The notes under the pieces are model-generated. The model searched no databases and was not told the DNA's origin. It was given only the letters and a program-made list of their open reading frames with translations. A DNA stretch of 64,000 nt from Candidatus Moraniibacteriota bacterium (GTDB taxonomy: Bacteria > Patescibacteriota > Minisyncoccia > Moranbacterales > GCA-2747515): NCBI GenBank assembly GCA_046116545.1, contig CP175956.1, positions 641,734 through 705,733 on the forward strand, read 5' to 3'. The position numbers and the translations under genes were made by a program. Shown here one piece after another: positions 1 through 47,284 of the stretch; positions within the stretch are counted from its first letter, which is position 1; the number at the start of each line of letters is the position of its first letter.

Positions 1-58
1 CATAGCATTTATATTCTGGATCAGCTTAATTATTGGAGTAGTCGTATTTTGGCCATTC

Positions 59-463
59 TTGCCGCATATGCCAATAGTTTTAAATTTTTTCTTACGAGAG
101 TATGAATTTGAGTGTAATATTTTGCGCGTGTTGGACATGGCAAGATTTGACACAAAAAGAAAGGATGGTTGGATGGCTCCACTTGAAATTTTGTATGCCG
201 TTGAAAAAATGTCTGGCAGGCAGCCAAGTGTAAGTGCTATTTATGTCACCTTGGGAAAATTGAGGAGAGAGGGTGCTGTTACAAGTAAGAAAGTTCCAGC
301 GGAATACTTAAAGAAGCCTCCAAAAAGAGCTAAAGTCAGCGGTGTCAGCTTGGCCTTCAAATTGGAAAATAATTCTAATTATAAACCTCGCAAGCCAAAG
401 TGGTTGCCAAAAGAGCAAAAGAAAGAAAGTAAGGGCGTGGTTGGCGGAGTTACAGCGCATTAA
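59..463 (+). CDS. hypothetical basic protein, possible winged-helix DNA-binding fold
   Basis: ORF of 134 aa; VTLGKLRREGAV-like segment and lysine-rich tail; start may be the internal M at 145; no family recognised. Confidence 0.3.
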   Translation: MPHMPIVLNFFLREYEFECNILRVLDMARFDTKRKDGWMAPLEILYAVEKMSGRQPSVSAIYVTLGKLRREGAVTSKKVPAEYLKKPPKRAKVSGVSLAFKLENNSNYKPRKPKWLPKEQKKESKGVVGGVTAH

Positions 464-490
464 TTTTTTTAAAGAGATTGGAAGAACTAT

Positions 491-600
491 TCCAGTCTCT
501 TTTTATTTGTCAAAATTTGTTGGCCCTATGGGATGAGGTTCGAACGGTTTTAAATTCAGTTTTGTAGTAGTATTCAAGACGTTTACTTGACAACTATACT
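491..600 (+). repeat. intergenic repeat module copy A (core 517-545 GTTGGCCCTATGGGATGAGGTTCGAAC plus conserved flanks)
   Basis: Near-identical to 1408-1515 and reverse complement of 47980-48090; 24-nt core shared with three further minus-strand copies; weak -35 TTGACA at 587-592. Confidence 0.85.
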
Positions 601-750
601 AAAATATAATAAGATTAAAAATCAAAATAGTTCCTTAAATTTAATGAAGTAGGAGTAAAAATGTAAATATTGTAATAACTCCAGATACATAATATGTAAA
701 GTCCAAATTTTAATGGATAAAAATCAATCAATATACAGGAGGAACATCTA

Positions 751-1335
751 ATGAAAAGACAGTTGACTGAGAAAGAAAAGAAGGTCATCAAAGGCTACAA
801 CCTTTCACCTCAAATTGAGCAAATAGTTTGGGATACTTGGAGCGAAGGCGAAAAACCAGCTGAAATGGGTTTTGTAAAAAAAATGGTTGGACAGCTCATC
901 GGGTTAGGTATCGTCTTTGGTAGTTCCGTGGCACTTTGGGTGAATTACCTCATGCCTGGAATTACCCAAATGCATGGCGTGTTGAATATAGTACGATTCT
1001 TTTTCTGGATAGTTCTTCCGTTAGTTGTGCTAATTTGTATTGTTCAGGTAGTCACGATCAACAAAAATGAGAAAGAGGCATTCAAAAAGTTCGCACTGGA
1101 TAGTTGGCAACAAAAAAGAACCATCATCCACAAAATTAGCAAAATAAATCAAGCTGCTTTGGTAATCGGTTTTATTCTTAATGGTTATTTTGTTTCAGCT
1201 ATGATGACTCTCGTTTGTTTTTTGGCTATATCTTTCATCAAAATTGGTATCAGATCAGATGTTCAAAAAATTATGGACAAAGTTGTCCCGCCGCAAAACG
1301 ACGATATCATCGAAGCGGAATACAGTTCAGTGTAG
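751..1335 (+). CDS. hypothetical integral membrane protein
   Basis: 194 aa, several hydrophobic helices; RBS AGGAGG 8 nt upstream; flanked on both sides by the repeat module. Confidence 0.5.
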   Translation: MKRQLTEKEKKVIKGYNLSPQIEQIVWDTWSEGEKPAEMGFVKKMVGQLIGLGIVFGSSVALWVNYLMPGITQMHGVLNIVRFFFWIVLPLVVLICIVQVVTINKNEKEAFKKFALDSWQQKRTIIHKISKINQAALVIGFILNGYFVSAMMTLVCFLAISFIKIGIRSDVQKIMDKVVPPQNDDIIEAEYSSV

Positions 1336-1407
1336 TAAAAAACTATACGCTCAAAAAGAGCAAATGCCCATTATCTTTTTTTCAGGATAATGGGCTTTTT
1401 TTAATTG

Positions 1408-1515
1408 ACAGATTGATTTTTAATTTGCAAAAATTAGTTGGCCCTATGAGATTAGGTTCGAACGCTTTTAAATTCAGTTTTGAAGTAGAATTTAAGGTTA
1501 TTAGATTGACATTTA
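1408..1515 (+). repeat. intergenic repeat module copy B with embedded promoter-like TTGACA(1506-1511)-17-TAAAGT
   Basis: Aligns along about 110 nt with copies A and C; core at 1434-1463. Confidence 0.85.
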
Positions 1516-1579
1516 GGATGAAATATGATAAAGTTACGTGTCCAAAATGTTTTTTAATTTAATGAAATAGGAGGTAACA

Positions 1580-1897
1580 ATGCAAATACTACAGTGGTTG
1601 CAAATACAAATGTCATTTTTGCAAACGGAATGGTTTTCTGTTGTATATGGATTGGTTGTATTTCTGAATCCATTTGCGATGGTGCCACAATTGATTTCTT
1701 CAGTTCGTGCAAAGCCTGAAGAATTACGGGGTGTTTCCGTAACAATGCTCATTTTGTTTTTAGTAATACAGATAGCTGTTGCACTGGGGGCGATAAAAAA
1801 TGTTGACATGGCCCTTTTTGCATCAATGTCAATAAGTACTGTAGTAACATTTACAGTTATTGTTATTACGATATTTAGACGTAATTTGAAGATGTGA
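1580..1897 (+). CDS. small 3-TM membrane protein, PQ-loop/SemiSWEET-like
   Basis: 105 aa; FAMVPQLISSVRAKPEEL PQ-motif in first helix; size and topology typical of SemiSWEET; RBS GGAGGT upstream. Confidence 0.45.
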   Translation: MQILQWLQIQMSFLQTEWFSVVYGLVVFLNPFAMVPQLISSVRAKPEELRGVSVTMLILFLVIQIAVALGAIKNVDMALFASMSISTVVTFTVIVITIFRRNLKM

Positions 1898-1957
1898 GTG
1901 TTATCTTTTATGTACATTCACAAAATATTAAAATCAGTAAAACGTTTGGAGAAAAAT

Positions 1958-2281
1958 ATGAAAAAACTCATGTTTTTAGTTTGTGCTTTTATGTTTATGG
2001 CAAGTAACTCTTTCGCAATGGAAGCGGGTACGGTACGCATAACAAAGCGAGGTGAAGTCGGTCAATCCACTCAGTTGAGAAATGAAATTGCTACACAGCA
2101 ATATAAAACTTCTCTTACTGAACAGGGTATAACAGGACAGCAACAAGATCATGTTGTGAGACAATGGCAAAAATATCACAATATTTCAACGCCACCTGCG
2201 CAACATCAGCCCAGTAGTAGTGCAGAAATCGGTCAATCTGCCTGGAATCGTTCTAGACAAATGAGAGATCAACAGAATTAA
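1958..2281 (+). CDS. small secreted Gln-rich protein (signal peptide)
   Basis: MKKLMFLVCAFMFMASNSFA signal-like N-terminus; start chosen inside ORF 1898-2281; terminator hairpin at 2316-2350. Confidence 0.4.
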   Translation: MKKLMFLVCAFMFMASNSFAMEAGTVRITKRGEVGQSTQLRNEIATQQYKTSLTEQGITGQQQDHVVRQWQKYHNISTPPAQHQPSSSAEIGQSAWNRSRQMRDQQN

Positions 2282-2315
2282 CAATGCAATAATTTTGCAT
2301 CTGCGGATTCTATAA

Positions 2316-2352
2316 GACAACGAGTGAATTTACTCGTTGTCTTTTTAAATTA
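2316..2352 (+). terminator. rho-independent terminator
   Basis: agacaacgagtgaatttactcgttgtct followed by ttttaaatt. Confidence 0.7.
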
Positions 2353-2593
2353 TCTTTTGCGCAATTACAACATTCTTGGTATTCTTTAGGTAGATAACTT
2401 AGTGTCTATACTTGATTGTAGTAGGGCTTTTCGCAACATTGTCAATACCAATGATATAGCTTATAGCTGATAAAAATAATCATTTCAGATTTTTCAACTC
2501 AGTTGTCGGAGAGTTGTTCAGGTTTAGTTTTTGGCATATCACCAGAAATCATGTCGGTAATGTTAGTCGGTTTAAATTTTAATTGAAAATAAA

Positions 2594-4030
2594 ATGGAAA
2601 TTATTATCAATAGGCAATATGGTAAATTAATTGCAAACCCAAGTACGAAAATAAAGTTCGATAATGTGGGCTATTATTCTGTTGTAGGTTTAAATAATAG
2701 TGGTAAGTCTTCTTTTTTACAATTCATATGTACTATTAAAGGCAATGTATTTTATTTGCCGGTAGAAAGATTGACTTTTGAGCAAAGTAGAAATGCACAA
2801 ATTGTAGATCTTAATCGGTGGATGCCTACTGTAAGAGCACAGATGCGAGGTGGACCAGTTAGTAGTACTCAATTTTTGCATGAAAGCGGAGAAATGGGTA
2901 CTCAGCTTAAAAATTTGATGCAGGCTATGTGGGATGAATTGGGTGATAGAGAAATGATTCGTGGTCAAGTTGCAAAAGATTGCAAAAGTTTACTGGAATC
3001 TGAGCCAGATACTCAAGGAAAAATTATTCAACTAATTGACCAAGATGAGGAGTCTCTTCCTTTTGCTCAGTTTGGATCTGGTTTTCGGGCATTATTACCA
3101 ATAATAATGGCTGTTAATTTAGATACTTATCCTGTGATATTAATTGATGAACCTGAACTTTCACTTGAGCCACGACTTCAAAAAAAAATAAAGAATTATT
3201 TGATAAGGAAGGCTCAAGAAAATAATAAATTAATTATTGTTGCTACACACTCTCATATTTTTCTTAATAAAAAAATTGTGCATATAGTTGGCCCAGAGGA
3301 GGTTAATAATGAAGATTCCTATATTGCAGAGAATATTATAGATATAGATGATAGGGGAGTAGTAACACAAGGTACACTAAAAGAAGATTTACCTGGATTA
3401 GTGTTTAATATGTTAGGTTCAAGTCCTTCAGATATTTTATTGCCAGACTCTATTATTATATGTGAAGGCTCAAGTGATCAAGTTTTTTTAGAAAAAATAC
3501 TTAATCTTAAAAACATTGATAATGTGGGAGTACATTTTGCAAGTGGTTTAGAAAAAATTCCATTAGCAGCTGAAGCAATTAAGCAAATGCTTAAGCCGGT
3601 TGGTGGGTACATGGAGATATATAAGCCAGTAATTTGTGCTTTATTTGATCGACCACAGTCAGACAAAAGAATCTTTATAGATAAAGTAGAGGAGCATATT
3701 GAATCAGATAATGATGGCAGGGTTGTGGTATTGGATAATAATGATTATACAGAACTTGAGTTTTGTTATCCTAAAGATTTAGTTATGAGATTGTGTGGTT
3801 CAGATTTTGATATCAAAAAATGGCTTGAAGATTGGAAGACGGCAAACAATAGGGAGCGGAATGAAGTATCTGTTAATGCAGGAAGTTTGGGTGAAGTAAC
3901 AAAGAGAAAATTTGCTCAAAAAGTATCAGATGAATTAACTAAAGAGCATTTGGAGAAAGCGAATGATGGTTTACAACAAATTATTTTATTGGTTGAGAAA
4001 GCAGAGTCTGTGCAAGAATTTTGGTCTTAG
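2594..4030 (+). CDS. OLD-family ATP-dependent endonuclease (ABC-type ATPase + Toprim), class 1-like
   Basis: Walker A GLNNSGKSS, signature-like FGSGFRALL, Walker B VILIDEPELSLEP, H-loop ATHSH; C-terminal Toprim-like IIICEGSSDQ and VVLDNND. Confidence 0.7.
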   Translation: MEIIINRQYGKLIANPSTKIKFDNVGYYSVVGLNNSGKSSFLQFICTIKGNVFYLPVERLTFEQSRNAQIVDLNRWMPTVRAQMRGGPVSSTQFLHESGEMGTQLKNLMQAMWDELGDREMIRGQVAKDCKSLLESEPDTQGKIIQLIDQDEESLPFAQFGSGFRALLPIIMAVNLDTYPVILIDEPELSLEPRLQKKIKNYLIRKAQENNKLIIVATHSHIFLNKKIVHIVGPEEVNNEDSYIAENIIDIDDRGVVTQGTLKEDLPGLVFNMLGSSPSDILLPDSIIICEGSSDQVFLEKILNLKNIDNVGVHFASGLEKIPLAAEAIKQMLKPVGGYMEIYKPVICALFDRPQSDKRIFIDKVEEHIESDNDGRVVVLDNNDYTELEFCYPKDLVMRLCGSDFDIKKWLEDWKTANNRERNEVSVNAGSLGEVTKRKFAQKVSDELTKEHLEKANDGLQQIILLVEKAESVQEFWS

Positions 4031-4093
4031 AGGACTTAATTATCAGATGGGATAATACAAATAGAATAATAATTAGAAAATAATTATAAAAAT

Positions 4094-4426
4094 ATGAGCG
4101 AATTACCAAAATGTATTAAATGCGGATCTGAGTTTACTTATCTTGATGTGAGTTTGTATGTTTGTCCTGAGTGTGGTCATGAGTGGTCTGGTGATGACGG
4201 GGAGATTGAAGATGAAAGTGTCAAAGATAGTAATGGCAATGTCTTGGTTGATGGTGATACGATTACTGTTATCAAAGATTTGAAAGTAAAAGGCACATCT
4301 CTGGTTGTGAAGGTTGGGACTAAGGTTAAGAATATTCGTCTGGTAGACGGTGATCATGATATTGATTGCAAGATAGATGGGATTGGTCCGATGAAACTGA
4401 AATCTGAGTTTGTGAAGAAGTTGTAA
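4094..4426 (+). CDS. phnA: PhnA/YjdC family zinc-ribbon protein
   Basis: CxxC...CxxC ribbon then [25 protein letters not shown]...[34 protein letters not shown], near-identical in pattern to E. coli YjdC. Confidence 0.85.
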
Positions 4427-4456
4427 AAGGGGGCAGGTTCTTGTTGTATTTTTTGA

Positions 4457-4485
4457 GATTGCTTCGTCGTACCTCCTCGCAAAGA
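4457..4485 (+). repeat. 29-nt exact dispersed repeat gattgcttcgtcgtacctcctcgcaaaga (second copy 62208-62236)
   Basis: Identical 29-mer at two distant intergenic sites. Confidence 0.8.
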
Positions 4486-4557
4486 TAGGTGAAAAATGTA
4501 TTTTACGGGATGACAGGCTTTTTATATTGTTGTTTTTAAAATTTTGCATAATCTTCT

Positions 4558-4584
4558 AGATTCCCGCCTACGCGGGAATGACAA
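4558..4584 (+). repeat. 5'-proximal hairpin element AGATTCCCGC-ctac-GCGGGAATGACAA (family copy 1)
   Basis: 8-bp stem, 4-nt loop, followed by GAATGACAA; 42 nt upstream of the 4626 start; related copies at 47258-47284 and 61964-61990 on the minus strand. Confidence 0.7.
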
Positions 4585-4625
4585 CAGTGTGACAATAAGT
4601 GATTTTGTAATGTTATAATGAAAAT

Positions 4626-5327
4626 ATGCATAGGTTATATGATGAGTTAAAGCAATATTCTTTAGATGATGCTATAGATTTTGAAAAGTCTGATAGGCAG
4701 TTTTTAGCTTTGGAGAAGTTGCATGATAATAAGTTATTTGATGATGTGAATTATTTATTTTTAACTATTGCTAATGCGTTGGTGTGTTACCAGTTGTCAG
4801 GGAAGGGTGAAGATTATTGGGAAGAGTTTGGTGTGGCATTGGAGGGTCAGAGGATTGATGATTTTTCTGATATAGAGATGTTTTTTGAAGATTTTTTACC
4901 AGCATCAAAAAATAATAAAAGATTTGTAAATATAAAATTAAAGAGAATCCAGAAATTAGAGAAGTTTTATAATGAGTTTTTGCAAAATGCTGAAATTTAT
5001 TATGCAGACATGAACAAATTAGTTCATGATTTGTCTAATATCATGAATCAAAAATCAGATGCAAAAACTATTGTTTTTTCTATAAAAATGTTCTCTTATT
5101 CTGCTAGAAATGTTTTTGGGTATTTAGAATATTTTCCTAAAGATATGATGATCCCAATTGATAGCAGATTAGAAAATTTATATAAAAAATATAATACTGA
5201 TATTGATCATATATCAAAAAAAGATATTCAAGAGTTCTATATGAATTTAGCTAAAAAATTAAATATCCAGCCTTTACATTTAGACTCTATCTTATGGGTG
5301 AATTATGATGAATTAATGAATGTATAA
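4626..5327 (+). CDS. putative N-glycosylase/DNA lyase (archaeal-type 8-oxoguanine glycosylase AGOG-like)
   Basis: 233 aa helical protein; resemblance to AGOG/HhH-GPD-like proteins is by overall pattern only. Confidence 0.35.
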   Translation: MHRLYDELKQYSLDDAIDFEKSDRQFLALEKLHDNKLFDDVNYLFLTIANALVCYQLSGKGEDYWEEFGVALEGQRIDDFSDIEMFFEDFLPASKNNKRFVNIKLKRIQKLEKFYNEFLQNAEIYYADMNKLVHDLSNIMNQKSDAKTIVFSIKMFSYSARNVFGYLEYFPKDMMIPIDSRLENLYKKYNTDIDHISKKDIQEFYMNLAKKLNIQPLHLDSILWVNYDELMNV

Positions 5328-5421
5328 ATCATTCTGTTTGTGTTGGACCTCTTGTAAAATACTATGGTAGTATATAGGTATAAAGATACAATTATTATGC
5401 AATAGGGTAGATAATAAATTT

Positions 5422-6216
5422 ATGAAAAAAATCATAGTTGGTATTTTGGCTTTGCTATTAGTCATATATATTGGTGGTTTTTTCTTTTCCTCTTGGGCAC
5501 AAGAATTATTGATTTATCCTAGTCCAAATCGTACCAATGAAAATTGTGAAAGAAAAATTGCAGAAAAAACAGTTGAGCATAATGAAACTACTTTATATCA
5601 TCAGTCTGTAGAGAATGCTGATGAAGTAATAGTTTTTTATCATGGTAATGGAAATATTGTTTGTGATATGGTTTTTGTGGCAGATATTTTTAATGAAAAT
5701 GATATATCATATATTTTCCCAGAGTATACTGGATATAGTGATGATGGTAATAAATCTACACATGAAGGCGTGTTAAAAAACGTACAAGATACAGCTGATT
5801 ATATTGAACAGCAAGATTATGAGCATGTTTATGTGATTGGACAGAGTATTGGGACAGGTGCAGCAGCGTATCATACAACTTTACAAGAAGTTGAGAAACT
5901 CCTTTTGATTTCTCCATTTACTACACTTACAGATGTTATTTATGAAATGGTCCCGTTGTATCCACGGATATTTATTGAAAACTTTTTTGTTGATTTATTT
6001 AATAATAAGTTGAGGTTACAAGATTATAAGGGTGATTTATTAATTATTCATGGTACAAATGATTTAGTTATAGATATTTCTCAAGGATTGGAATTGTTTG
6101 AGTCGACTTCAGCAAGACAAAAGGAATTTCTATCAGCTGAGGGCTTTGGACATGCAAATATTGTTGAGTCAGATGAGATAATAAAAGTCATTAATGATAT
6201 AAGTCAGCAAGAATAA
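5422..6216 (+). CDS. membrane-anchored alpha/beta hydrolase
   Basis: N-terminal TM; HGNGN oxyanion region; GQSIG nucleophile elbow (GxSxG); catalytic His near the C-terminus. Confidence 0.65.
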   Translation: MKKIIVGILALLLVIYIGGFFFSSWAQELLIYPSPNRTNENCERKIAEKTVEHNETTLYHQSVENADEVIVFYHGNGNIVCDMVFVADIFNENDISYIFPEYTGYSDDGNKSTHEGVLKNVQDTADYIEQQDYEHVYVIGQSIGTGAAAYHTTLQEVEKLLLISPFTTLTDVIYEMVPLYPRIFIENFFVDLFNNKLRLQDYKGDLLIIHGTNDLVIDISQGLELFESTSARQKEFLSAEGFGHANIVESDEIIKVINDISQQE

Positions 6217-6278
6217 TTAAGTTGACAATAGACGGTAGATAGCTGATATTTAATAGAGTATTAATTTATAGAATAATT

Positions 6279-7946
6279 ATGAAAAAAATATTTAATAAAG
6301 TTAGTAATTGGGTTGTTGCATATTGGAATAAATTTAATCATGTAGGATTATTTATTGCAATTATTTTTACAGCATATTCACTTACGCCGTCACTTCTCCC
6401 ACGTAGTCCTCTTTTTCAAGGACTTCTTTCTGGTGTTGTATTTGCTATTGGGTATGGCATTGGTTGTTTCATCGTGTATATGTGGCACTATTTGGAATTA
6501 CCAGCATTAAAAAAAGAATGGAGAAAAAATACACATATTGCATTTGCCGTAATTGCTATTGGTGCTATTGTGTATACAAATAGTAATTGGGTTAAATGGC
6601 AAAATTCAATTCTTGAGGTGATGAATCAAGATCTAATATCTACTAATTTTGTGCTAGTCTCAGTTATTCTCATTGGCGGCATTGTGGCAATGATTTTAAT
6701 TGCTATTGGGCGACTTATTTCAAAGGGATTTCATTTTATAATGAAGAAATTTCATCATGTGATACCAAAACGTATTTCACGGTTCATTGGTTTTGTGGTA
6801 GCACTATTTCTTTTTTGGGGAATTGTAAATGGTATATTAATTCAAAATATTTATAATGTTGTTGATACAGTTTCTGCACATATAAATAAATTAACAGATG
6901 ATGGTATAGAGCAACCTACTGACCCAAATAAAACCGGAGGAACGGAATCACTTATAGCATGGGATACTCTTGGGAAAATGGGTCGCAGTTTTGTTGCTAG
7001 TGGACCAACTGCGCAAGATATCAAAGAATTTACAGGTAAAGAAGCACTTGAGCCGATACGTATTTTTGTAGGTATGGAATCTAGAAAGACAGTACAAGAA
7101 CGTGCTGAACTTGCCTTAGAAGAATTAAAGAGAGTAAACGCATTTGATCGAGAAATCCTTGTAATTACTACACCAACTGGAACAGGCTGGATGGATCCTT
7201 ATTCTATGGATACATTGGAATATATACATAATGGAGATACGGCTAATGTTGGAATACAGTATTCATATTTATCAAGTCAGGCAACATTGGTTTTTCATCC
7301 AAAACGAGCTAGTGAAACATCAGAGGCAATGTTTAGTGCTATTTATAATCATTGGAAAACACTTCCAAAAGACAAACGTCCAAAAGTATATTTATTTGGT
7401 GTTAGTTTAGGTTCTTTTGGAGGTGAAAAATCAACAAAGTTACATAAGATTATGCAGGATCCTATCAATGGTGCTTTGTGGGCAGGACCTCCTTTTGTGA
7501 ATGATTTACATAAAGACTTAGTGATTAATAGGAATACAGGGTCGCCATCATGGTTGCCAACATATGAAGATGGTTCATTTGTACGATTTACTTCAAAAGA
7601 AAGTGCATTAGATAATTATAAAAAAGATTGGGGTGATATGCGCATAATATATTTGCAGCATGCAAGTGATCCAATGACAGCTTTTTCGCCAGATTTATTG
7701 TTCAAGAGTCCAGCATGGCTAGAGGGCGAGCGTGGACCAGATGTGTCCCCAATGCTTAATTGGCATCCAATGGTTACTTTTTTTCAAGTAGCATTTGATC
7801 TTATTGTATCAGTATCGGCAGCACCACTTGGGCATGGACATAATTTTTCACCAGAAAGCTATATAGATGGATGGATTGAGATTTCAGATCCAGCTAATTG
7901 GACTGATGACATGACAGTACGACTCAAAGAACTTTTCCTAAAATAA
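6279..7946 (+). CDS. polytopic membrane protein with C-terminal alpha/beta-hydrolase-like domain (Abhydrolase_9-like)
   Basis: Four or more N-terminal TM helices; GVSLGSFGG GxSxG motif; architecture resembles the membrane-bound alpha/beta hydrolase family. Confidence 0.5.
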   Translation: MKKIFNKVSNWVVAYWNKFNHVGLFIAIIFTAYSLTPSLLPRSPLFQGLLSGVVFAIGYGIGCFIVYMWHYLELPALKKEWRKNTHIAFAVIAIGAIVYTNSNWVKWQNSILEVMNQDLISTNFVLVSVILIGGIVAMILIAIGRLISKGFHFIMKKFHHVIPKRISRFIGFVVALFLFWGIVNGILIQNIYNVVDTVSAHINKLTDDGIEQPTDPNKTGGTESLIAWDTLGKMGRSFVASGPTAQDIKEFTGKEALEPIRIFVGMESRKTVQERAELALEELKRVNAFDREILVITTPTGTGWMDPYSMDTLEYIHNGDTANVGIQYSYLSSQATLVFHPKRASETSEAMFSAIYNHWKTLPKDKRPKVYLFGVSLGSFGGEKSTKLHKIMQDPINGALWAGPPFVNDLHKDLVINRNTGSPSWLPTYEDGSFVRFTSKESALDNYKKDWGDMRIIYLQHASDPMTAFSPDLLFKSPAWLEGERGPDVSPMLNWHPMVTFFQVAFDLIVSVSAAPLGHGHNFSPESYIDGWIEISDPANWTDDMTVRLKELFLK

Positions 7947-7953
7947 ATTTAGA

Positions 7954-8214
7954 ATGAATTATTTTGTTTATATTTTGCACTGTTCTGATGATACGTTGTA
8001 TACAGGTATTACGACTGATGTAAGTAGGCGATTGGAAGAGCATAATGGCAAAGTTAAAGGTGCAAAATATACTAAAATGCGCCAACCTGTAAAATTGGTT
8101 TACTCTGCTGAGTTTTTGAATCGGTCTACTGCTAGTATTGAAGAATGTAGGATTAAAAAATTATCTCGTAAGCAAAAAGAATTGTTAATCAATCATAGTG
8201 CATGTATAATTTAA
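7954..8214 (+). CDS. GIY-YIG nuclease domain protein (UPF0213/YhbQ-like)
   Basis: FVYILHCSDDTLYTGITTDVSRRLEEHN matches the GIY-YIG signature. Confidence 0.8.
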   Translation: MNYFVYILHCSDDTLYTGITTDVSRRLEEHNGKVKGAKYTKMRQPVKLVYSAEFLNRSTASIEECRIKKLSRKQKELLINHSACII

Positions 8215-8286
8215 AATAGAGAAATAAACAAAAACTTAAAGTATAAAACCTAGGTAATAAAATTATCATTGAAGATTAGAAATAAT

Positions 8287-8604
8287 ATGATTGAAGTATT
8301 TAGAGCAAAAATTATTGAAGATGAAAAGGAGCGTGAAGCAGCTCTTGAAGTCATTGCAGAACGTGAGAACTATTATGTAGAGCTTTTTGCTAATGATGCA
8401 AGAAAACCAAGGATAACTGTAAAATACGAAGGTGCAAGTCCACTTACAGTACGTATTTTATTTTCTCCGCCTAGTGGTAAAACGGTAGTTGTTAATGAAA
8501 GTGGCTATGGGACTGCTGATTCTGTTACAAAACATGCATTCAAAAAACTTCGTCGTCTAGCAAAAAATCATTTTGTAAAAATGAAAAAACGTCATGGTAG
8601 ATAA
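8287..8604 (+). CDS. hypothetical protein, possibly ribosome hibernation factor-like
   Basis: Start moved to MIEVFRAK; C-terminal GYGTADSVTKHAFKKLRRLAKNHFVKMKKRH loosely resembles HPF/RaiA C-terminal helix; weak. Confidence 0.3.
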   Translation: MIEVFRAKIIEDEKEREAALEVIAERENYYVELFANDARKPRITVKYEGASPLTVRILFSPPSGKTVVVNESGYGTADSVTKHAFKKLRRLAKNHFVKMKKRHGR

Positions 8605-8648
8605 GTGTGTGGTATGATTAAAGTGTAATTACATTAAACAAAAAATAT

Positions 8649-8912
8649 ATGGGATTTTTTAGCAAGGTGACTGATGATGCAGTCGATAAGGCTGCTGACG
8701 CAGCAAAAGATGTAGCAGAAGATAAGATAGATGATACAGTAGAAGCAACTGGAATGGAAGATAATGCAATGGTAGAAGGAGTTGCTGATAAAGCAACAGA
8801 AATGAGTGGTGATGGCGTGGACGCGGCTGCTGACAAAGTAAAAGATATACTTGGAGGTGGCGAAGAGGGTGATACACACACTTGTGAAGGTGACACTTGT
8901 TCTCATGAATAA
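8649..8912 (+). CDS. small acidic CsbD-like/antitoxin-like stress protein
   Basis: 87 aa; repeated KAADAAKDVAEDK motifs typical of CsbD-like proteins. Confidence 0.4.
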   Translation: MGFFSKVTDDAVDKAADAAKDVAEDKIDDTVEATGMEDNAMVEGVADKATEMSGDGVDAAADKVKDILGGGEEGDTHTCEGDTCSHE

Positions 8913-9059
8913 TTGTTGAAATACAAATGAAAAAGGATACAAAATAAATTTTTGTATCCTTTTTATTTTTTTACTCACTTAGTAAAATTTCTTAGATTAT
9001 AAATAAAGAAAGCATAAATTAATGACAAATTCTTATTTTTGTGCTTAAATAGATGAGAT

Positions 9060-9515
9060 ATGAGTACAAATTATTATGATATTTTAGGAGTTGAAAAGAC
9101 AGCATCTGAGAAGGAAATCAAGATGGCTTTTCGTAAACTCGCACACCAACATCATCCAGATAAGGGTGGGGATGAAAGAAAGTTTAAAGAAATAAATGAA
9201 GCTTATCAAACATTATCAAAAGCTGATAAACGCAAACAATACGATACGTTTGGCAGTGCTTCAACGGGTGGTTTTGGTAATGCGGGAGGTTTTGGAGGAG
9301 CCCAAGGTGGATTTAATAACGCAAGTTATACTCAGTATGCAGATATGTTTTCTCGTCGCAATGGCACAGGTGGTAAAATATTTTCTTTCAAAAGTATACC
9401 TGGATGGGCATGGATATTTTTGTTACCAATTATAATAGTTGTGGCAGCGATTGGTCTTATTTTTGTATTTATGTGGATAGTATTTTCCACTTTTAGAGTT
9501 ACAGTTAATAAATAA
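9060..9515 (+). CDS. J-domain (DnaJ-like) membrane protein
   Basis: YYDILGV...HPDK J-domain with HPD motif, Gly/Phe-rich linker, C-terminal TM helix. Confidence 0.8.
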
Positions 9516-9517
9516 AT

Positions 9518-9817
9518 ATGAATGACATTCTTTTATATATAATTATATTTTTTGTAATCATGAATGTGGTTGCTTTTTTGATGATGTGGATTGATAAAGG
9601 TAAGGCGAACAAAAAAGGTGCTAACAGAATTTCAGAGGGCATGCTATTTTTTATGGCAACTTTTTTTGGTAGCGTAGGTGTATATTTGGGAATGTTTACT
9701 TTTAGACACAAAACAAGGAAATGGTATTTTATTGTTGGAATTCCATTTATTATATTACAAAATATTATATTTTTACTTTTTATTCATCAGGTATACTTAG
9801 GCAATATTTTTTTATAA
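9518..9817 (+). CDS. DUF1294 family membrane protein
   Basis: WIDKGKANKKGANRISEGMLFFMATFFGSVGVYLGMFTFRHKT matches the DUF1294 pattern. Confidence 0.7.
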   Translation: MNDILLYIIIFFVIMNVVAFLMMWIDKGKANKKGANRISEGMLFFMATFFGSVGVYLGMFTFRHKTRKWYFIVGIPFIILQNIIFLLFIHQVYLGNIFL

Positions 9818-9821
9818 AAAG

Positions 9822-9858
9822 TAAAAACGATATCATTATTAAATAATATCGTTTTTTT
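9822..9858. terminator. bidirectional rho-independent terminator
   Basis: aaaacgatatcattattaaataatatcgttttttt between convergent genes. Confidence 0.7.
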
Positions 9859-9859
9859 G

Positions 9860-10126
9860 TTAGTCTTGTATGCAATTTATCAGTTGTTTTTTTCTGAAAT
9901 TGCTGGTTGAATTCATGTAATTGAAGAATTCGCCTCTTGCCATATAATATTCAGCAGTGTCCCCAAGCTTATCAGAAACATTCAAGGAACTAGCTGTTAT
10001 TGTTAACATATTGCTATTGAAGCAATTATGGTATTCACAGATGAAAAATAATGCTATGAGTGGTGTCATGTTTTCATCAGTGCTTACTAATATATCAATG
10101 AGTTTTTGTGTGTTTATGTCATCCAT
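9860..10126 (-). CDS. hypothetical protein
   Basis: 88 aa; RBS AGAGGT upstream; last gene of a three-gene minus-strand operon. Confidence 0.4.
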   Translation of the reverse strand: MDDINTQKLIDILVSTDENMTPLIALFFICEYHNCFNSNMLTITASSLNVSDKLGDTAEYYMARGEFFNYMNSTSNFRKKQLINCIQD

Positions 10127-10136
10127 AGATATACCT

Positions 10137-10418
10137 CTAAAATAATAATTTTATTTTTCTCTTTTGAGAAGGCGTAATGGCTGGAAGCCAGAAATCACTA
10201 ACTGCCTCTGTAGTTTGCATATAACCATTTAAATTTTCACCAAGAAGCAAAGTTTGTAATATACGACTTTTGCGTGTAATTAATGCATTTCCTTTGCAAT
10301 TTTTTAATTGTGGATGTTTATCAAAAATATATGATATAACATAAATTTCATCACCACATCTTTGTGTGATAGTTGTAATTTTATTATACAACTCAATAAT
10401 TTGTTTATCAGAAAGCAT
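10137..10418 (-). CDS. hypothetical protein
   Basis: Start at internal MLSDKQ preceded by strong AAGGAGT RBS; 4-bp spacing from upstream gene stop. Confidence 0.45.
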   Translation of the reverse strand: MLSDKQIIELYNKITTITQRCGDEIYVISYIFDKHPQLKNCKGNALITRKSRILQTLLLGENLNGYMQTTEAVSDFWLPAITPSQKRKIKLLF

Positions 10419-10422
10419 ATCA

Positions 10423-10956
10423 TTAACTCCTTCTTTTTCTGAGGTTTTTATGAAGCAGTGTTTGTAGTCCTGTCTTACGATCAATAGGTGAATAACTATG
10501 ACATTTAGAACAATATAGTGCAACAAATTGCACACATTTTTCATCCTGTCGATTCTCATACGCTTTAGGTATCCTGGGAATATGACATTTAGGACAGGTA
10601 TGTGTTTGAGTTTGCATTAACTCAAGTAAAATAGTCACACGTTCTTTTAGTCGCATACGCCATTTACCATACATTGAGATATCCTTCATCTCTATGAGAT
10701 AGGGAGGAGTATCTTTGCCAATAATATTTGATACTATTTTAATTTTTCTACTACTATCCAAATCAAATTTATCATAAGCATTAACATAAAGAGGTAAAGT
10801 GACAATGATAGAAATTCCAATAGAATCAAAATTGTTGTAATAAATAATTTTTTTGGAATGATCCGTTGGTTCAAGTCTTAGAAATTGTCCTCCAAAAAGA
10901 ATAGAAAAGAATTCTTTCATATCAGTATTAAAACTTTCTGGATAAAAAATGCACAT
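10423..10956 (-). CDS. hypothetical protein with C-terminal CxxC...CxxC zinc ribbon
   Basis: 177 aa; CPKCH...CSKCH; RBS AAGGAGT upstream. Confidence 0.45.
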   Translation of the reverse strand: MCIFYPESFNTDMKEFFSILFGGQFLRLEPTDHSKKIIYYNNFDSIGISIIVTLPLYVNAYDKFDLDSSRKIKIVSNIIGKDTPPYLIEMKDISMYGKWRMRLKERVTILLELMQTQTHTCPKCHIPRIPKAYENRQDEKCVQFVALYCSKCHSYSPIDRKTGLQTLLHKNLRKRRS

Positions 10957-11094
10957 TTTTTAATACTCCTTAGCATTGGTTTAATGTTAAATTTTGAAAT
11001 AACTATATAACGTATAAATATATAGGTAATTTTATGAATTGTCAATAATAAAAATGCTTATGATATGTTATATCATAAGCATTAAGAAATATTT

Positions 11095-11472
11095 TTATAA
11101 AGAACGTTTAATGAGGATAATGCCAAAAAGTATAAATGTAATGAGAAATAGAAAAAAATTACAAATGAATACTATTGGTACTAGTTTATCTAATAATGCA
11201 GATAGATTATTTGGTAGAATCAATAAAGATTGATCTAGTAATGCAAGACATGCTGTCATGCCAAGCGATGCTATAGCAATCGTTCCCATTGAAAGTAGTG
11301 TGTTTTTGAATTTTTGAAAGTCAGTTTTTGTGGGTGTTTCCAAAAAAAATGAATTAAAAGATTTTTTTGTTTCAAAAATATATGTATAGAGTGCCTTTGA
11401 AGAAGCAATCAAACATACAATTAATAACAAATCTAGCATAAAATCAACTCCTTTTATATTGTTAGTGAACAT
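11095..11472 (-). CDS. hypothetical membrane protein
   Basis: 125 aa, three hydrophobic segments. Confidence 0.4.
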   Translation of the reverse strand: MFTNNIKGVDFMLDLLLIVCLIASSKALYTYIFETKKSFNSFFLETPTKTDFQKFKNTLLSMGTIAIASLGMTACLALLDQSLLILPNNLSALLDKLVPIVFICNFFLFLITFILFGIILIKRSL

Positions 11473-11563
11473 GTATAAGTCAATATATAATAGATTATCC
11501 TGAGTGAAAAGTCAATATAGAAAAGATGTTTAGTTACTTTAATTTTTGTGGTATACTATATAC

Positions 11564-13639
11564 ATGAAACAAAAACAAAATTATTCACAATTATTTAATC
11601 CGCGTTCAATTGCGGTTATAGGAGCAAGTAGCACGAAGGGAAAGGTTGGAAATATGATAGCGCGTAATATTACATCTCATAAATATGATGGTGATGTGTT
11701 TTTTGTGAATCCTAAAAGAGATAAAATACTTGGTAAAAAGTGTTATAAATCATTAATTGATATAAAACAGTCTGTTGATTGTACCATTGTAGTTGTACCT
11801 GGAAAATTTGTTGAACAAGTTATACGTGAGAGTATAGATGTCTGTAAAAATTTTGTTGTTATATCAGCAGGCTTTGGGGAGACTGGAATGAAGGGTCATA
11901 ATATGGAAATGTCATTGAATGCATTAGCCATGAAAGAAAACATAAATATACTAGGACCAAATTGTTTGGGATTTCTTACGCCATCAATTGGTCTTAATGC
12001 TTCATTTGCAGAGGGGCTTCCTGCAGAGGGAAAGACTGCAGTGATATCTCAATCTGGAGCATTAGCAGTTGCAATTATGGATAAAGCCAGAGAAGAAAAT
12101 ATAGGTTTTTCATCTGTTGTATCAATTGGAAATAAAATGCAAATTGGGGCGGCTGAATTAATAGAGTATTTTAGAAAAGATAAAAATACAGATACGATAG
12201 CATTATATTTAGAAGGAGTTAATCGTGGAACATTATTTCTAGAGGCTATTTCAAATGCAGTTAACGATGGTAAGAAAGTTATAATTCTGAAAGCAGGAGT
12301 AACACAAGAAGCACAAGAAGCGATTGCTCTTCATACGGGCTCTTTAGCTGGTAGTGATGATATATTTAGCGCAGCTTTGAAAAAAGTTGGAGGTGTACGA
12401 GCTAATAGTATGAGTGAGTTTTTTGCACTCATTAGATTTGCTCAGCATTATAAGAGTGATATTGATGGAGTAGCTAATATAGGTATAGTCACAAATGCTG
12501 GTGGTCCTGGAGTTTTGGCAACTGATGTAGTTGCTAGTGTTGAAGGAGTTGAAATGAGTAAATTGGAAAAAAATACGAGGGACATTTTAAAAAAGAAGCT
12601 ACCAGAGGCTGCTTCAGTACATAATCCAGTTGATTTACTTGGAGATGCTACATTAGATAGGTATGAGATTGGTATTAAAAAAATGATTTCTGATAAGTCA
12701 GTAGATGTCATTTTAGTATTGCTGACACCACAAGATCAAACTCCAGTTAAAGAGGTGGCTAAGTTGGTGATAGAATTGCAAGCTAAGACAAAGAAATTGA
12801 TTATAACATCCTTCATAGGAGGAGAACGCGTAAGAGGTGCTATCGAAGAGATGAATGCTGGTGGTGTATTACATTTTATATCTCCACGAGTTGCGTTAAC
12901 TGCTGTATCAGCATTTGTGCGTAAGCGTGATGTTTATAATATTGTAAAAAAGCCTGTTTCCAAAGAGCGGTCTGACAAAGTCAGTAAGATTATAGAAAAT
13001 GCTTCAGGACAGGAATCACTATATTTTCAGGAGTGTGCTGATATTGCAAAAATGTATAATATTCCAATGAGTAAATTTTGGGATGTAACAAATGGTTTGG
13101 ATGCTGAAATGAAAATAAAATATCCATGTGTTGTGAAAGTTGATAATCCAAATGTATTACACAAGACTGATAGAGGTGGAGTGCTATTGCCTATAAATAA
13201 CTTAAAAGAATTAATTGAGGCTAGAGAAATCTTATTAAATAGATTTGAAGAAGATGGTACTAGAGTTATTGCACAGCCAATGCTTAAGATAAAGACAGAA
13301 TTGATCATAGGGTTAAAAAGAGATTCAGTTTTTGGAGTTGTGATTGTAGCTGGATTTGGAGGTATATACACGGAGGTGTTTAATAAAGTAAATTTTTACA
13401 TATCACCATTGACCACGTCAGAAATAAAAAATACTTTACGAAGTGGTGCATTAAGTTTTTTATTTGATGGAACTCGTGGAGAGGAAAGTTATAATTTGAA
13501 TTCTATAGCAGATATCATATACAATATGGCACTTATGGGGAGTGAAAATTCAAAAATCGTAGCGATAGATATAAATCCACTCCTTGTGTATAACGATGAT
13601 AAACCAGACGTAGCGGTTGATTTTAAAATTGTATTGTAA
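11564..13639 (+). CDS. acetate--CoA ligase (ADP-forming), fused alpha/beta domains
   Basis: CoA-binding/succinyl-CoA-synthetase-like N-terminal domains plus C-terminal ATP-grasp; ATG at 11564 preferred over upstream TTG; extended -10 TGgTATACT ends 7 nt before the ATG (possible leaderless). Confidence 0.8.
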   Translation: MKQKQNYSQLFNPRSIAVIGASSTKGKVGNMIARNITSHKYDGDVFFVNPKRDKILGKKCYKSLIDIKQSVDCTIVVVPGKFVEQVIRESIDVCKNFVVISAGFGETGMKGHNMEMSLNALAMKENINILGPNCLGFLTPSIGLNASFAEGLPAEGKTAVISQSGALAVAIMDKAREENIGFSSVVSIGNKMQIGAAELIEYFRKDKNTDTIALYLEGVNRGTLFLEAISNAVNDGKKVIILKAGVTQEAQEAIALHTGSLAGSDDIFSAALKKVGGVRANSMSEFFALIRFAQHYKSDIDGVANIGIVTNAGGPGVLATDVVASVEGVEMSKLEKNTRDILKKKLPEAASVHNPVDLLGDATLDRYEIGIKKMISDKSVDVILVLLTPQDQTPVKEVAKLVIELQAKTKKLIITSFIGGERVRGAIEEMNAGGVLHFISPRVALTAVSAFVRKRDVYNIVKKPVSKERSDKVSKIIENASGQESLYFQECADIAKMYNIPMSKFWDVTNGLDAEMKIKYPCVVKVDNPNVLHKTDRGGVLLPINNLKELIEAREILLNRFEEDGTRVIAQPMLKIKTELIIGLKRDSVFGVVIVAGFGGIYTEVFNKVNFYISPLTTSEIKNTLRSGALSFLFDGTRGEESYNLNSIADIIYNMALMGSENSKIVAIDINPLLVYNDDKPDVAVDFKIVL

Positions 13640-13646
13640 AAAATAT

Positions 13647-14711
13647 ATGACATTACAAAATAAAAGAAACGATTTATTAAACACTGAAGATGCATACGAC
13701 GATAATGCATTAGATTTATTTGATAAATACAGTGTAACAATTGATGAAGATAATCCAGTTGAAATTAATGCTGATTTAAGTATTGAAAATGAATTAGAAG
13801 AGCAAAAGGAGCCGCTAGTACAAGAAGAAGTTATAGTTAAATCGGAAGAATCAATAAACTCTACAAAAAGTGAGATTAATGAAAAAAATGATGACACCGA
13901 ATCAATAAATAATATTTCTGTATCTGAGACTAATGAAGATGAAGCACCTATTCATGCAATAGCGCCCGTTAGAGATAATTATAATTCGGTTTCAAAACAG
14001 TTGGATACACATAATGTAATAGTTACTCAACAAGAAGAATCTGTCTATGAGGCTTCTGCTTCAACTAATGGCGTAAAAACTGAAAAAGAAAAAACTATAA
14101 AAAGGAGTTATACGGGGGATGTTGAGAAGTTTTTGGATAATAATATTCATGTAGATCCTAGTAAAAAAACAATACTTATTGTTGATGATGATATTGATAC
14201 ATTGGAGATGTATGCAGATGTATTTACAAATGCTAATTATAATGTTTTGAGAGCAGCTGATGGATTAGAGGCTATACATGTTCTATCAAATAATATTCCA
14301 CATATTATATTTACTGGAATTGTTATGCCTAGGATGGATGGTTTTGAAATGATGCAAGCATTGAAACAGGATAAACGTACGGAAGGAATTCCTGTTATTA
14401 TTAATTCTCATTTAGGGAGAGATACCGATAAAAAACAAGCTCAGGAGTTGGGTGCAAAAGATTTTATAATAAGAGGATTTACGCAGCCAAAAGAAGTATT
14501 GGAGAGAGTGGGAGCATTACTACTACATAGTGAATATGTAATACATTTTGATTCACAAGATGAAGATATTGTAAGGTTGGCAAATGATTTGGGAACATCA
14601 GACTTTTTACACTGTCCACAAGGTCAGCGAATGGTTTTAAAAATTCATATTGATGATGAGCAAAACTTAACTTTTTCAGCTAGATTTAGTTGTGTGGATG
14701 ATAAAAAATAG
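13647..14711 (+). CDS. response-regulator receiver-domain protein with acidic N-terminal region and unknown C-terminal domain
   Basis: KKTILIVDDDIDTLEMY...VMPRMDGFEMMQALKQ CheY-like receiver with conserved D/D/K positions. Confidence 0.7.
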   Translation: MTLQNKRNDLLNTEDAYDDNALDLFDKYSVTIDEDNPVEINADLSIENELEEQKEPLVQEEVIVKSEESINSTKSEINEKNDDTESINNISVSETNEDEAPIHAIAPVRDNYNSVSKQLDTHNVIVTQQEESVYEASASTNGVKTEKEKTIKRSYTGDVEKFLDNNIHVDPSKKTILIVDDDIDTLEMYADVFTNANYNVLRAADGLEAIHVLSNNIPHIIFTGIVMPRMDGFEMMQALKQDKRTEGIPVIINSHLGRDTDKKQAQELGAKDFIIRGFTQPKEVLERVGALLLHSEYVIHFDSQDEDIVRLANDLGTSDFLHCPQGQRMVLKIHIDDEQNLTFSARFSCVDDKK

Positions 14712-14774
14712 TTGTTTTTTGTAGATGATTGAGTTATTATATATTCAATAATTATTTTTATAGGAGGAGGGTTA

Positions 14775-14996
14775 ATGGAATCAAATAATGTATCATTTGA
14801 AAAGTTTGTTGAGACCGTTGTAAGTATTTTAGATTCGGTTTCTAAGAAAAGAAAAGAACTTAAGGGTGAGAGTGATGAAGAGTTTTTAAAAAGCACATTT
14901 GAAACAATAAAAAAACGTAAGGGCTACGTTGAAATGTCAGATGCTACATTAACAGGTGAAACAATGCGAGCACAGTTGAAGGTGTATGAATGGTAA
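14775..14996 (+). CDS. small hypothetical protein
   Basis: 73 aa; strong RBS AGGAGGAGGG upstream. Confidence 0.4.
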   Translation: MESNNVSFEKFVETVVSILDSVSKKRKELKGESDEEFLKSTFETIKKRKGYVEMSDATLTGETMRAQLKVYEW

Positions 14997-15054
14997 TTAA
15001 CTGGATGGAATATATAAATATCCCATCTTTTTATTTTATGTTACAATAATCAGT

Positions 15055-16752: not shown

Positions 16753-16867
16753 AGTTTTAATATTACATACTTTTCAAAAAATATTTGAAAAAGTTTATAT
16801 TTGTGGTACGGTTTAGTATAGTTTTTTAACAATAACAAATTTATAAATTACAAATAGGAGGAATTAA

Positions 16868-17668: not shown

Positions 17669-17815
17669 TTAACAGTTATGCACGCAAGCTCTAACTACAT
17701 ATTATGTAGTTAGAGTTTTATATTTCTTGACTAAAATTTAAATTTAAGGTATTATATAATATTATAGTTTTTTGACAACAACATATTTATCAATTAAAAA
17801 CGTGAGGAGAAAAAA

Positions 17816-19427: not shown

Positions 19428-19435
19428 AATAATAC

Positions 19436-19480
19436 AAAAACCCCGATCACATAACATGTGGTCGGGGTTTTAAATTTTTT
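19436..19480 (+). terminator. rho-independent terminator
   Basis: aaaaaccccgatcacataacatgtggtcggggttttaaatttttt. Confidence 0.85.
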
Positions 19481-19610
19481 GTATGTTAAGTATAGAAAGG
19501 TACAATATTAATGTGCTTGAGTTTTTAAGTAGATAACGAAAAGTTAATATTGTAGATATAAATTTTTAGTGTTAATATATAAGATATAAATAATAAAATA
19601 AATATAAAAT

Positions 19611-47257: not shown

Positions 47258-47284
47258 TTGTCATTCCTGCGCAGGCAGGAATCT
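47258..47284 (-). repeat. 5'-proximal hairpin element (family copy 2): AGATTCCTGC-ctgc-GCAGGAATGACAA on the minus strand
   Basis: Same architecture as 4558-4584 with a compensatory C/T:G/A stem change; 27-53 nt upstream of the helicase start codon. Confidence 0.7.

Follow-up and report, generated by a model that had tools for sequence, protein, structure and literature searches.

A tRNA-Gln-Like 33-Nucleotide Repeat at the Joints of Single-Gene Arrays in Candidatus Moraniibacteriota: A Possible Attachment-Like Site

The Locus and the Distribution of the Repeat

The sequence analyzed here is a 64,000-nt stretch of the chromosome of a Candidatus Moraniibacteriota bacterium (contig CP175956.1, positions 641,734 to 705,733), referred to below as the window, and the element in question is a repeat with a 33-nt core that stands at the joints between small, mostly single-gene units. 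The window is ordinary chromosome and carries aspS, gltX, pheST, pyrG, glyA, priA, recJ, fmt, and def. GC skew is positive to ~40 kb and negative from ~42 kb, with the change of sign at ~41 kb, and genes converge there; on these two grounds the window probably spans the replication terminus.

A 28-nt version of the core, TTGGCCCTATGGGATGAGGTTCGAACGG, matched five sites in the window at up to three mismatches, against 0.00 matches in shuffled sequence. Copy A (519-552, + strand; GTTGGCCCTATGGGATGAGGTTCGAACGGTTTTA), whose reverse complement resembles the 3' end of tRNA-Gln from T-loop to acceptor, contains the 28-nt match at 520-547 with 0 mismatches, and copy B (1437-1470, +) contains it at 1438-1465 with 3. 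The other three lie on the - strand: copy C (48052-48085; match at 48057-48084, 2 mismatches) is followed by a class-1 extension (48012-48051), copy D (48891-48924; 48896-48923, 3 mismatches) by a class-2 extension with an extended -10 promoter downstream, and copy E (49458-49491; 49463-49490, 3 mismatches), which a terminator precedes (49539-49509), likewise by a class-2 extension. A sixth and somewhat more diverged copy, F (50239-50272, -; similarity over 50239-50279), has a class-3 extension and is located upstream of a cassette gene at 49583-50122.

The source contig was followed for 9 kb leftwards (L019; other stretches examined also carry L numbers) and for 10 kb past the last complete right-hand gene (L022). 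Four more + strand cores were present just upstream of the window (L019 5972, 6460, 7963, and 9034), and no further core was found in the ~8 kb beyond its right end. The 10 copies therefore form two groups, six on the + strand between recQ and the gene at 1580 and four on the - strand between pyrG and pif1. In the left array six cores bound five units, and in the right array four cores and one tRNA fragment bound four units; this n+1 count of joints to units is the pattern produced by serial integration at one site.

Genome and metagenome collections were scanned with a degenerate 24-mer, yielding 18 stretches, to which an nhmmer profile then added diverged neighboring copies. Nearly all of the genome-collection matches (n = 9) came from metagenome-assembled genomes titled Moraniibacteriota, and the family comprises more than 45 copies across Moraniibacteriota contigs; the profile set holds 35 non-redundant copies, with another 10-11 in L033 and L039. 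The core was not found in the viral contigs searched, and a megablast search with window positions 1-20000 returned no phage match and, among plasmid records, only a short match to yjdM. An exact match to the core pattern, GGTCCTGTGGGACGAGGTTCGAAC, was also seen at L011 1327-1359, in a contig of 54% GC, where it adjoins a PEP-CTERM protein gene and lies 180 nt from a convergent tRNA-Trp; this match may be due to chance, about one such match being expected in the scan by rough estimate, or may be an independent tRNA-derived fragment.

Anatomy of the Junctions

Only the core, GTTGGCCCTATGGGAyGArGTTCGAACnnTTTT, is common to all copies. Profiling of the 35 non-redundant copies showed high information content from position -2 to position +30 only; the conserved region ends sharply at 33 nt, and the flanks vary freely. 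Upstream of the core, there is usually a terminator hairpin, of which a few classes recur, and then an A-rich flank with the pattern ATTTGTCAAAAnnT; downstream lies one of at least three unrelated extension blocks or, in some copies, the promoter directly. The class-1 extension reads GGTTTTrAATTCAGTTTTGGAGTAGAATTyAAG and is followed by TTGACA, and the class-2 extension reads TTTTATTGCAATAAATAGTG..TGnTATAAT. The spacing between core and -35 hexamer ranges from 8 to ~95 nt across copies, and at L019:6460 the next gene is convergent. Terminator class, core, extension class, and promoter are freely combined in these mosaic junctions, as is evident from orthologues of the C151 gene described below, which share gene and promoter yet have a class-1 extension here and a class-3 extension in L013 and L033.

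An earlier note on this DNA had described copies A, B, and C as a module, near-identical over about 110 nt. Similarity does run beyond a 24-nt core, pairwise alignment giving 64-79 nt at 82-87%: copy A (500-578) and copy B (1418-1496) are 87% identical over 79 nt, copy B (1433-1505) and the reverse complement of the copy C region (48017-48089) are 82% identical over 73 nt, and copy A (515-578) and the reverse complement of 48026-48089 are 86% identical over 64 nt. Near-identity was nevertheless an overstatement, as A and B agree at 84/112 positions (75%) over the ranges originally compared, where random 110-mers of the window agree at 47 +/- 3%. The range given for copy C, 47980-48090, is offset (-8 to +79 relative to the core). 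The 110-nt module is the class-1 version of the mosaic junction, assembled from the 33-nt core, one of the alternative extensions, and a promoter.

At copy A, the junction begins with the intrinsic terminator of the upstream cassette gene (471-502, +; a 13-bp stem, then a T run) and the flank motif TTATTTGTCAAAATTT (503-518, +), which other genomes also have just past the 3' end of their tRNA-Gln genes. Past the core lie the class-1 extension (553-586, +) with a degenerate inverted repeat, TTAAATTC-N12-GTATTCAA, and a promoter-like TTGACA-17-TAAGAT (587-615, +; 10/12 consensus positions) that would drive the gene at 751-1335. At copy B, the intrinsic terminator of that gene (1366-1395, +) is followed beyond the core by a class-1 extension (1471-1505, +) with the inverted repeat TTAAATTC-N12-GAATTTAA and by a promoter-like TTGACA-17-TAAAGT with TG (1506-1534, +), then a ribosome-binding site and an ATG at 1580, so that, as earlier proposed, the predicted promoter of copy B could drive the gene at 1580-1897. 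The TTGACA hexamer reported previously is present in A, B, and C, each time with a 17-nt spacer, and the C151 promoter on the - strand (48011-47983) matches TTGACA-17-TATAAT at 12/12 consensus positions. Judged by consensus match, units carry their own TTGACA-17-TAnnnT or extended -10 site and their own terminator. With its hexamers, a spacer that falls within the 16-18 nt typical of such promoters, and a ribosome-binding site and open reading frame (ORF) downstream, the module contains a predicted sigma-70-type promoter.

The ORFs at 342-536 and 1215-1562 are artefacts, as suspected, which read through the repeat in a frame other than that of the real genes. A further ORF, at 48878-49390 (-), has no stop before core D and reads through it, ending ...CWPYGMKFEHFYCNK; unlike at other junctions, there is no terminator between this gene and the core. 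At L003:6252-6290, a core is split by a GC-rich hairpin, which is not the palindromic element of pheT described at the end.

Cassette Genes and Their Mobility

The arrays consist of co-oriented, unrelated, mostly single-gene units with one site per unit, typically single genes of 0.4-1 kb, and their content varies between relatives. The gene at 751-1335 (+), here called mem194, encodes a 194-aa membrane protein that belongs to no Pfam family and is bracketed by copies A and B, as the earlier note had recognized. Its orthologue in another metagenome (L033/L039) is 92% identical in protein, 93% in coding DNA, and 85% at third codon positions, and window 513-1474 aligns with L033 8986-9896 in such a way that homology sets in at core A (513) and ends ~10 nt past core B (1474), both neighbors in L033/L039 being different from those in the window. 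Duplication or transposition of the element itself had been proposed; what moves instead is the cassette, from core to core. The flanking genes differ, so there is no segmental duplication, and in this respect the view that the separated genes are unrelated was upheld. In the same genome pair, coding identity of C151 is 79% vs 93% for mem194. The orthologues of these two genes lie in a single array in L039; in the window they are 46 kb apart and on opposite strands.

A second cassette behaves in the same manner: F179 (50275-49503) recurs at a different locus in L005 with 89-91% identity vs 77-80% for housekeeping genes. The loci that hold the arrays are correspondingly variable. Between pyrG and pif1 there are five small genes here and three different genes in L008; no cassettes occupy this interval in L029/L030, where it is a 146-nt spacer, and L032 has a single 54-aa ORF. 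At the locus between ftsX and tRNA-Gln, gene sets are wholly different among L003, L005, and L039, and in the last of these a 13-kb stretch holds 17 small genes and no fewer than 13 junctions.

Genes downstream of cores share no functional theme. The gene ending at 463 encodes a membrane-anchored winged helix-turn-helix (wHTH) protein, PadR-like on the strength of a weak Pfam match only (E = 0.007-0.014), and was not found at the other loci examined, so that it was set aside as a candidate protein for the repeat; in addition to this wHTH gene inside an array here, an extracytoplasmic function (ECF) sigma gene lies inside an array in L007. The unit downstream of copy B (1580-2281, +) contains two genes, the first (1580-1897) for a membrane protein of 105 aa and the second (1958-2281) for a secreted protein of 107 aa, and there is no core after its terminator (2314-2343). 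The label of PQ-loop-like that had been attached to the gene at 1580 found no Pfam support even at E <= 5. It had also been asked whether full-length copies always precede membrane-protein genes, which they do not, as copy C precedes a soluble Zn-ribbon-type protein and the core at L019:7963 a lipoprotein.

Relationship to tRNA-Gln

The arrays in L001, L003, L005, and L013 end at a convergent tRNA-Gln(CTG) gene, a relationship that the earlier note missed. On the array strand, this gene starts exactly at the slot otherwise taken by the core, and the terminator classes and flank ahead of it are those that stand ahead of cores. With a slash marking the border, tRNA-Gln stands in the context terminator-AATTTGTCAAAAATTGTT/GGGCTGGTAGGATTCGAAC and the core in the context terminator-ATTTGTCAAAATTTGTT/GGCCCTATGGGA(TGAGG)TTCGAAC; the longer forms are ...TTTTTAATTTGTCAAAAATTGTT/GGGCTGGTAGGA, a gap of five positions, and TTCGAAC/CTACGC... 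for the tRNA gene, and ...TTTTTATTTGTCAAAATTTGTT/GGCCCTATGGGATGAGGTTCGAAC/GGTTTT... for the core. Within the window, the flank motif is found at cores only and is no general post-terminator feature. The core can be described as a tRNA-Gln fragment with 5 additional nt (yGArG) and a diverged acceptor part.

The window has no intact tRNA gene as judged by ARAGORN; it has only a canonical tRNA-Gln 3' fragment, GTTGGGGCAATAGGATTCGAAC (47370-47391, -), in which the acceptor 3' strand, T-stem, and T-loop are present and the tRNA body is missing. Flanked by the C151 terminator and the pif1 promoter, this fragment takes the place of a core and forms the closing joint of the right-hand array. The neighboring gene C151 (47465-47920, -) encodes a 151-aa protein whose orthologue adjoins an intact tRNA-Gln in L013 and L001. 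Orthologous tRNA-Gln fragments precede pif1 in L002 and L031, that of L031 being identical to a real tRNA-Gln 3' end, L008 has an intermediate form, GTTGGTCCTATAGGATTTAAGC, and another tRNA-Gln fragment occurs in L007. A split or intron-containing tRNA-Gln was considered and rejected, there being no tRNA-Gln 5' part in the window.

All cores and tRNA-Gln fragments break at the same point, ...GAAC/, which is the border of the T-loop and the 5' strand of the T-stem and a sublocation used by tRNA-targeting integrases. The five extra nucleotides of the core mean that it cannot rebuild a tRNA, and the presence of this non-restoring variant indicates that all cores descend from one variant and not from independent integrations into tRNA-Gln. 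In a more distant member of the Parcubacteria that has no cores (L035 1-11052), prophage-like genes and a pair of large serine recombinases lie on either side of the C151 orthologue; on this evidence, the C151/tRNA-Gln neighborhood appears to be an integration hotspot outside this clade as well.

Polarity and Decay of Cores

Cores are not equally well preserved along an array. Measured by profile score, the last core outscores the first in 11/13 arrays (binomial p = 0.011), and the score rises along the direction of transcription in 24/35 adjacent core pairs (p = 0.02). In L039, score and position correlate with a Spearman rho of 0.71 (p = 0.015) when two fully decayed joints at the ftsX-proximal end are excluded. 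Promoter and ORF remain intact where the core has decayed (L005) or has been split by an insertion (L003); the decayed core of L005 retains 71% identity vs ~91% in its surroundings, with changes mostly from GC to AT, the core being GC-rich in a genome of 32% GC. As decay follows array position and leaves promoter and gene intact, cores are apparently not maintained in place but are intact because they are recent, and the arrays probably grow at their downstream, tRNA-Gln-proximal end. Copies A and B are the best preserved of the left array, which fits the high identity of the mem194 cassette to its L039 counterpart.

A Possible Attachment-Like Site

We incline, with reservations, to the reading that the module joins the cassettes of an integron-like array as an attachment (att)-like junction and that it goes back to a tRNA-Gln integration site. 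Cassette mobility, the common break point, homology to the tRNA, empty sites, and polarity are observed; the recombination mechanism is inferred from them. Under this model, a junction would comprise, in order along the genes, the terminator of the preceding gene, the short flank, the 33-nt core, and an extension block containing the sigma-70-type promoter of the next gene, the core being a diverged copy of the tRNA-Gln 3' end (in reverse complement, the T-loop, the 3' strand of the T-stem, and the acceptor 3' strand) with 5 nt added. Cassettes would be added singly at the downstream, tRNA-Gln-proximal end of the array, entering by recombination at an att-like site that derives from the segment, T-loop to 3' end, used by tRNA-targeting integrases. 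The recombinase may act in trans, encoded elsewhere; each cassette would bring its own promoter and terminator, and older junctions would be left to decay neutrally.

Several points weigh against this reading. No recombinase or integrase gene was found in ~94 kb of the source contig or beside arrays elsewhere, and no ORF tested in the window, L019, L022, L025, or L039 contains a Phage_integrase or other recombinase domain; large serine recombinases were seen only in L035, a genome without cores. The 5 nt by which the core exceeds the canonical tRNA 3' end are an insertion for which the model has no explanation, nor does it explain how an array arrived between pyrG and pif1, where the empty site of L029/L032 has neither tRNA nor core. 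The extension block is not always linked to its gene, as C151 here and in L013/L033 demonstrates. No excised circle and no presence/absence polymorphism within the species was seen, gene order being identical in all contigs that carry the exact proteins, and homologous recombination between repeats could give much of the same picture.

A wider proposal, doubtful at present although worth stating, is that Moraniibacteriota, as members of the candidate phyla radiation (CPR), carry a dedicated integron-like gene-capture system. Its att site would mimic the T-loop and acceptor end of tRNA-Gln, a recombinase elsewhere in the ~1.2-1.3 Mb genome would add cassettes in succession at the tRNA-proximal end, each a single gene with its promoter, and the array would constitute an ordered record of acquisition with decaying older joints. 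Little is understood of the ways in which CPR bacteria, host-dependent and with tiny genomes, acquire and trade accessory genes; with a compact cassette system, there would be a concrete mechanism for strain-level variation in their surface, membrane, and defence-type genes. The joint sequence offers a search handle with which the cassette pool could be harvested from metagenomes and the recombinase sought by co-occurrence, and it is of use in annotation as well, explaining spurious read-through ORFs and marking real promoters. In the literature library searched, neither sequence nor topic led to an account of arrays of this kind in Patescibacteria.

Alternative Explanations

Two other explanations, each of which we consider rather improbable, account for part of the evidence. 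The core could be a cis-regulatory protein-binding site, an operator or activator site co-regulating accessory genes and copied along with promoter blocks. In its favor, nearly every copy stands upstream of a co-oriented sigma-70-like promoter and gene, and conservation lies at the level of sequence without RNA structure; an 8-bp inverted repeat in class-1 extensions, 89% paired, is of the type bound by dimeric regulators, and regulator genes (wHTH here, ECF sigma in L007) do reside inside arrays. The distance between core and -35 hexamer is far from constant, however, the core at L019:6460 precedes a convergent gene, promoter and ORF are kept in orthologues despite a decayed or interrupted core, downstream genes lack a common functional theme, and syntenic relatives have no core. 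That core integrity tracks array position is likewise unexpected under selection in situ. The second explanation dispenses with dedicated machinery and regards the repeats as portable homology, through which RecA-dependent recombination and gene conversion, for instance after DNA uptake, shuffle genes and homogenise cores. Mosaic junctions with freely recombined parts, the lack of a recombinase gene nearby, and the availability of 40-110-nt units at 80-95% identity as substrates all suit it. It sits less well with a conservation edge that is sharp at 33 nt while flanks vary, with a break that recurs at exactly GAAC/, also in unrelated tRNA-Gln fragments, and with a polarity of decay that implies addition at one end; moreover, a GC-rich core in a 32% GC genome decays fast unless renewed.

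The remaining three explanations carry far less weight. That the element itself is a small mobile element with an outward promoter, similar to miniature inverted-repeat transposable elements (MITEs) or repetitive extragenic palindromes (REPs) and transposing into intergenic regions, is very improbable: it is multi-copy, intergenic, and promoter-bearing and occurs in several genomes, but it lacks terminal inverted repeats, a palindrome, an inverted partner core, and target-site duplications, its extension is not constant, copies are clustered in arrays in a single orientation, and homology between genomes takes in the entire gene between two cores and is not confined to the element, no orthologous intergenic region having been seen to differ only by presence of the module. 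There is scarcely any likelihood that the cores are polar, Ter-like replication-fork barriers in two opposed clusters flanking the terminus. The sign change of GC skew at ~41 kb, the six left copies on + and four right copies on - with none between them or in the 8 kb beyond the right end (L022), and the co-orientation of all copies with local skew are what such barriers would produce, yet orientation is confounded with gene direction, arrays in L001, L007, and L039 lie within regions of uniform skew, copies decay with array position, the syntenic terminus-proximal regions of L029-L032 (11-21 kb each) have no core, and the domain search found no Tus-like or replication terminator protein (RTP)-like protein. 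It is just as hard to credit the core, alone or with its extension, as a structured RNA (a leader, small RNA, or tRNA-like element), despite its resemblance to a tRNA 3' end and the class-1 inverted repeat. Rfam gave nothing at gathering thresholds and nothing credible at E <= 10, the tRNA covariance model did not match, and ARAGORN called no tRNA; against shuffles, folding z-scores of the core lay between ~0 and +1.1 for the gene strand and between -0.9 and +0.9 for its complement. The RNAalifold consensus of 13 class-1 modules reached -2.6 kcal/mol with no compensatory pair, and the inverted repeat, TTGAATTC-N12-GAATTCAA, is paired no more than column shuffles (166/500). The element also lies upstream of the predicted promoters. 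Visual inspection of the core for a sigma-54 promoter, an ECF promoter, or a shifted sigma-70 promoter led to the rejection of all three, since the spacings misfit and no -10 is conserved across extension classes.

Comparison with Known Systems

If the att-like reading is correct, a close parallel lies in integron arrays, including clusters of attC sites lacking integron-integrases (CALIN). Both consist of co-oriented, small, unrelated, mostly single-gene units with one conserved recombination-type site each, content varies between relatives, growth takes place at one end with older units further off, and arrays without an adjacent integrase are possible. The site described here, however, is a 33-nt, asymmetric, sequence-conserved, and tRNA-derived one, not an attC hairpin with R''/L''-L'/R' boxes: the core folds no better than shuffles on either strand and no pair of inverse core and core was found, and GTTGGCC agrees with the integron GTTRRRY at only 6/7 positions. 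Every cassette has its own promoter and terminator here, unlike promoterless integron cassettes, which are expressed from the common promoter Pc; neither attI, Pc, nor IntI was found at the arrays, and the host is a CPR bacterium.

Genomic islands at tRNA genes are bounded by direct repeats of the tRNA 3' end, their integrases target the T-loop or the 3' end, and tandem accretion at one tRNA occurs. The arrays resemble them in part: an intact tRNA-Gln stands at one end in L001, L003, L005, and L013, though the window has only the fragment; the repeat spans T-loop to 3' end with a fixed break point, though the acceptor part of the multi-copy core is diverged and the tRNA covariance model does not match it; displaced fragments lie on the far side, and the loci are hypervariable. 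They differ in that the units are single genes of 0.4-1 kb without an integrase of their own, that the 5-nt insertion prevents the repeat from restoring the tRNA, and that arrays also exist at loci without a tRNA gene.

The pdif modules and integrative mobile elements exploiting Xer (IMEX) use Xer recombinases, and their site has XerC/XerD-type inverted arms around a 6-bp spacer. In these systems, a conserved site of ~28-33 bp bounds small modules that hold one gene or two, and a recombinase encoded elsewhere moves them, as would be the case here, and the arrays in this window also lie near the probable replication terminus; in contrast, inverted arms are absent from the core, the sites all face the same way, and no dif-like site was found. 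Identification of the core itself as a dif/Xer site was rejected, inverted arms being absent and the dif-like pattern no commoner than in shuffles. Repeats of the REP, MITE, and Rickettsia palindromic element types are similarly short, multi-copy, intergenic, and conserved within a lineage, but the core has no palindrome or terminal inverted repeat and is strictly oriented, clustered, and tied to cassette boundaries.

Other Features of the Window and Its Flanks

At L019 2748-5973, ~3.3-6.5 kb upstream of window position 1, a retron-type reverse transcriptase gene (PADLOC RT_II-A/III-A, E = 1e-43) overlaps the start of a RecQ-like helicase gene, and the stop codon of the latter is directly followed by the first core of the left array. 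The reverse transcriptase was considered as a protein linked to the repeat and dismissed, there being no evident connection. At the other end of the array, the junction after the terminator at 2314-2343 resembles a class-2 promoter block from which the core is missing. Just after the left array, window 2594-4030 (+) encodes a 478-aa AAA_21/AAA_15 ATPase resembling defence ATPases (AriA, PtuA, Old, and GajA; PADLOC E = 1e-16).

Exactly at the sign change of GC skew there is a 1.4-kb AT-rich stretch (41883-43275; 27% GC) that has no ORF of at least 60 aa and in which a 43-nt sequence is directly repeated (42503 and 42575). It holds no recognizable dif-like site, and its syntenic counterpart in L002 holds other small genes and a + strand core.

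Two further repeat families were encountered. The phenylalanyl-tRNA synthetase beta-chain gene pheT (58424-60883, -) contains three in-frame copies (59479-59514, 60226-60261, and 60639-60674) of a palindromic element, 36 nt long and GC-rich, that reads GCCCTCACCCCAACCCTCTCCCAGAGGGAGAGGGGG in the coding direction. The inserts, which encode PHPNPLPEGEG-like peptides, are similar to Rickettsia palindromic elements. A repeat of 35 nt, TTTyrAGATTGCTTCGTCGTACCTCCTCGCAAAGA, is present at 4451-4485 and 62202-62236 (+) with 94% identity, and a related hairpin-like sequence, GATTGCTTCATCGTACCTCCTCGCAATGAC or TTCCTGCCTGCGCAGGAATGACA, lies in the pif1 leader of L031, L002, and the window (47262-47285, -), representing another small repeat family.

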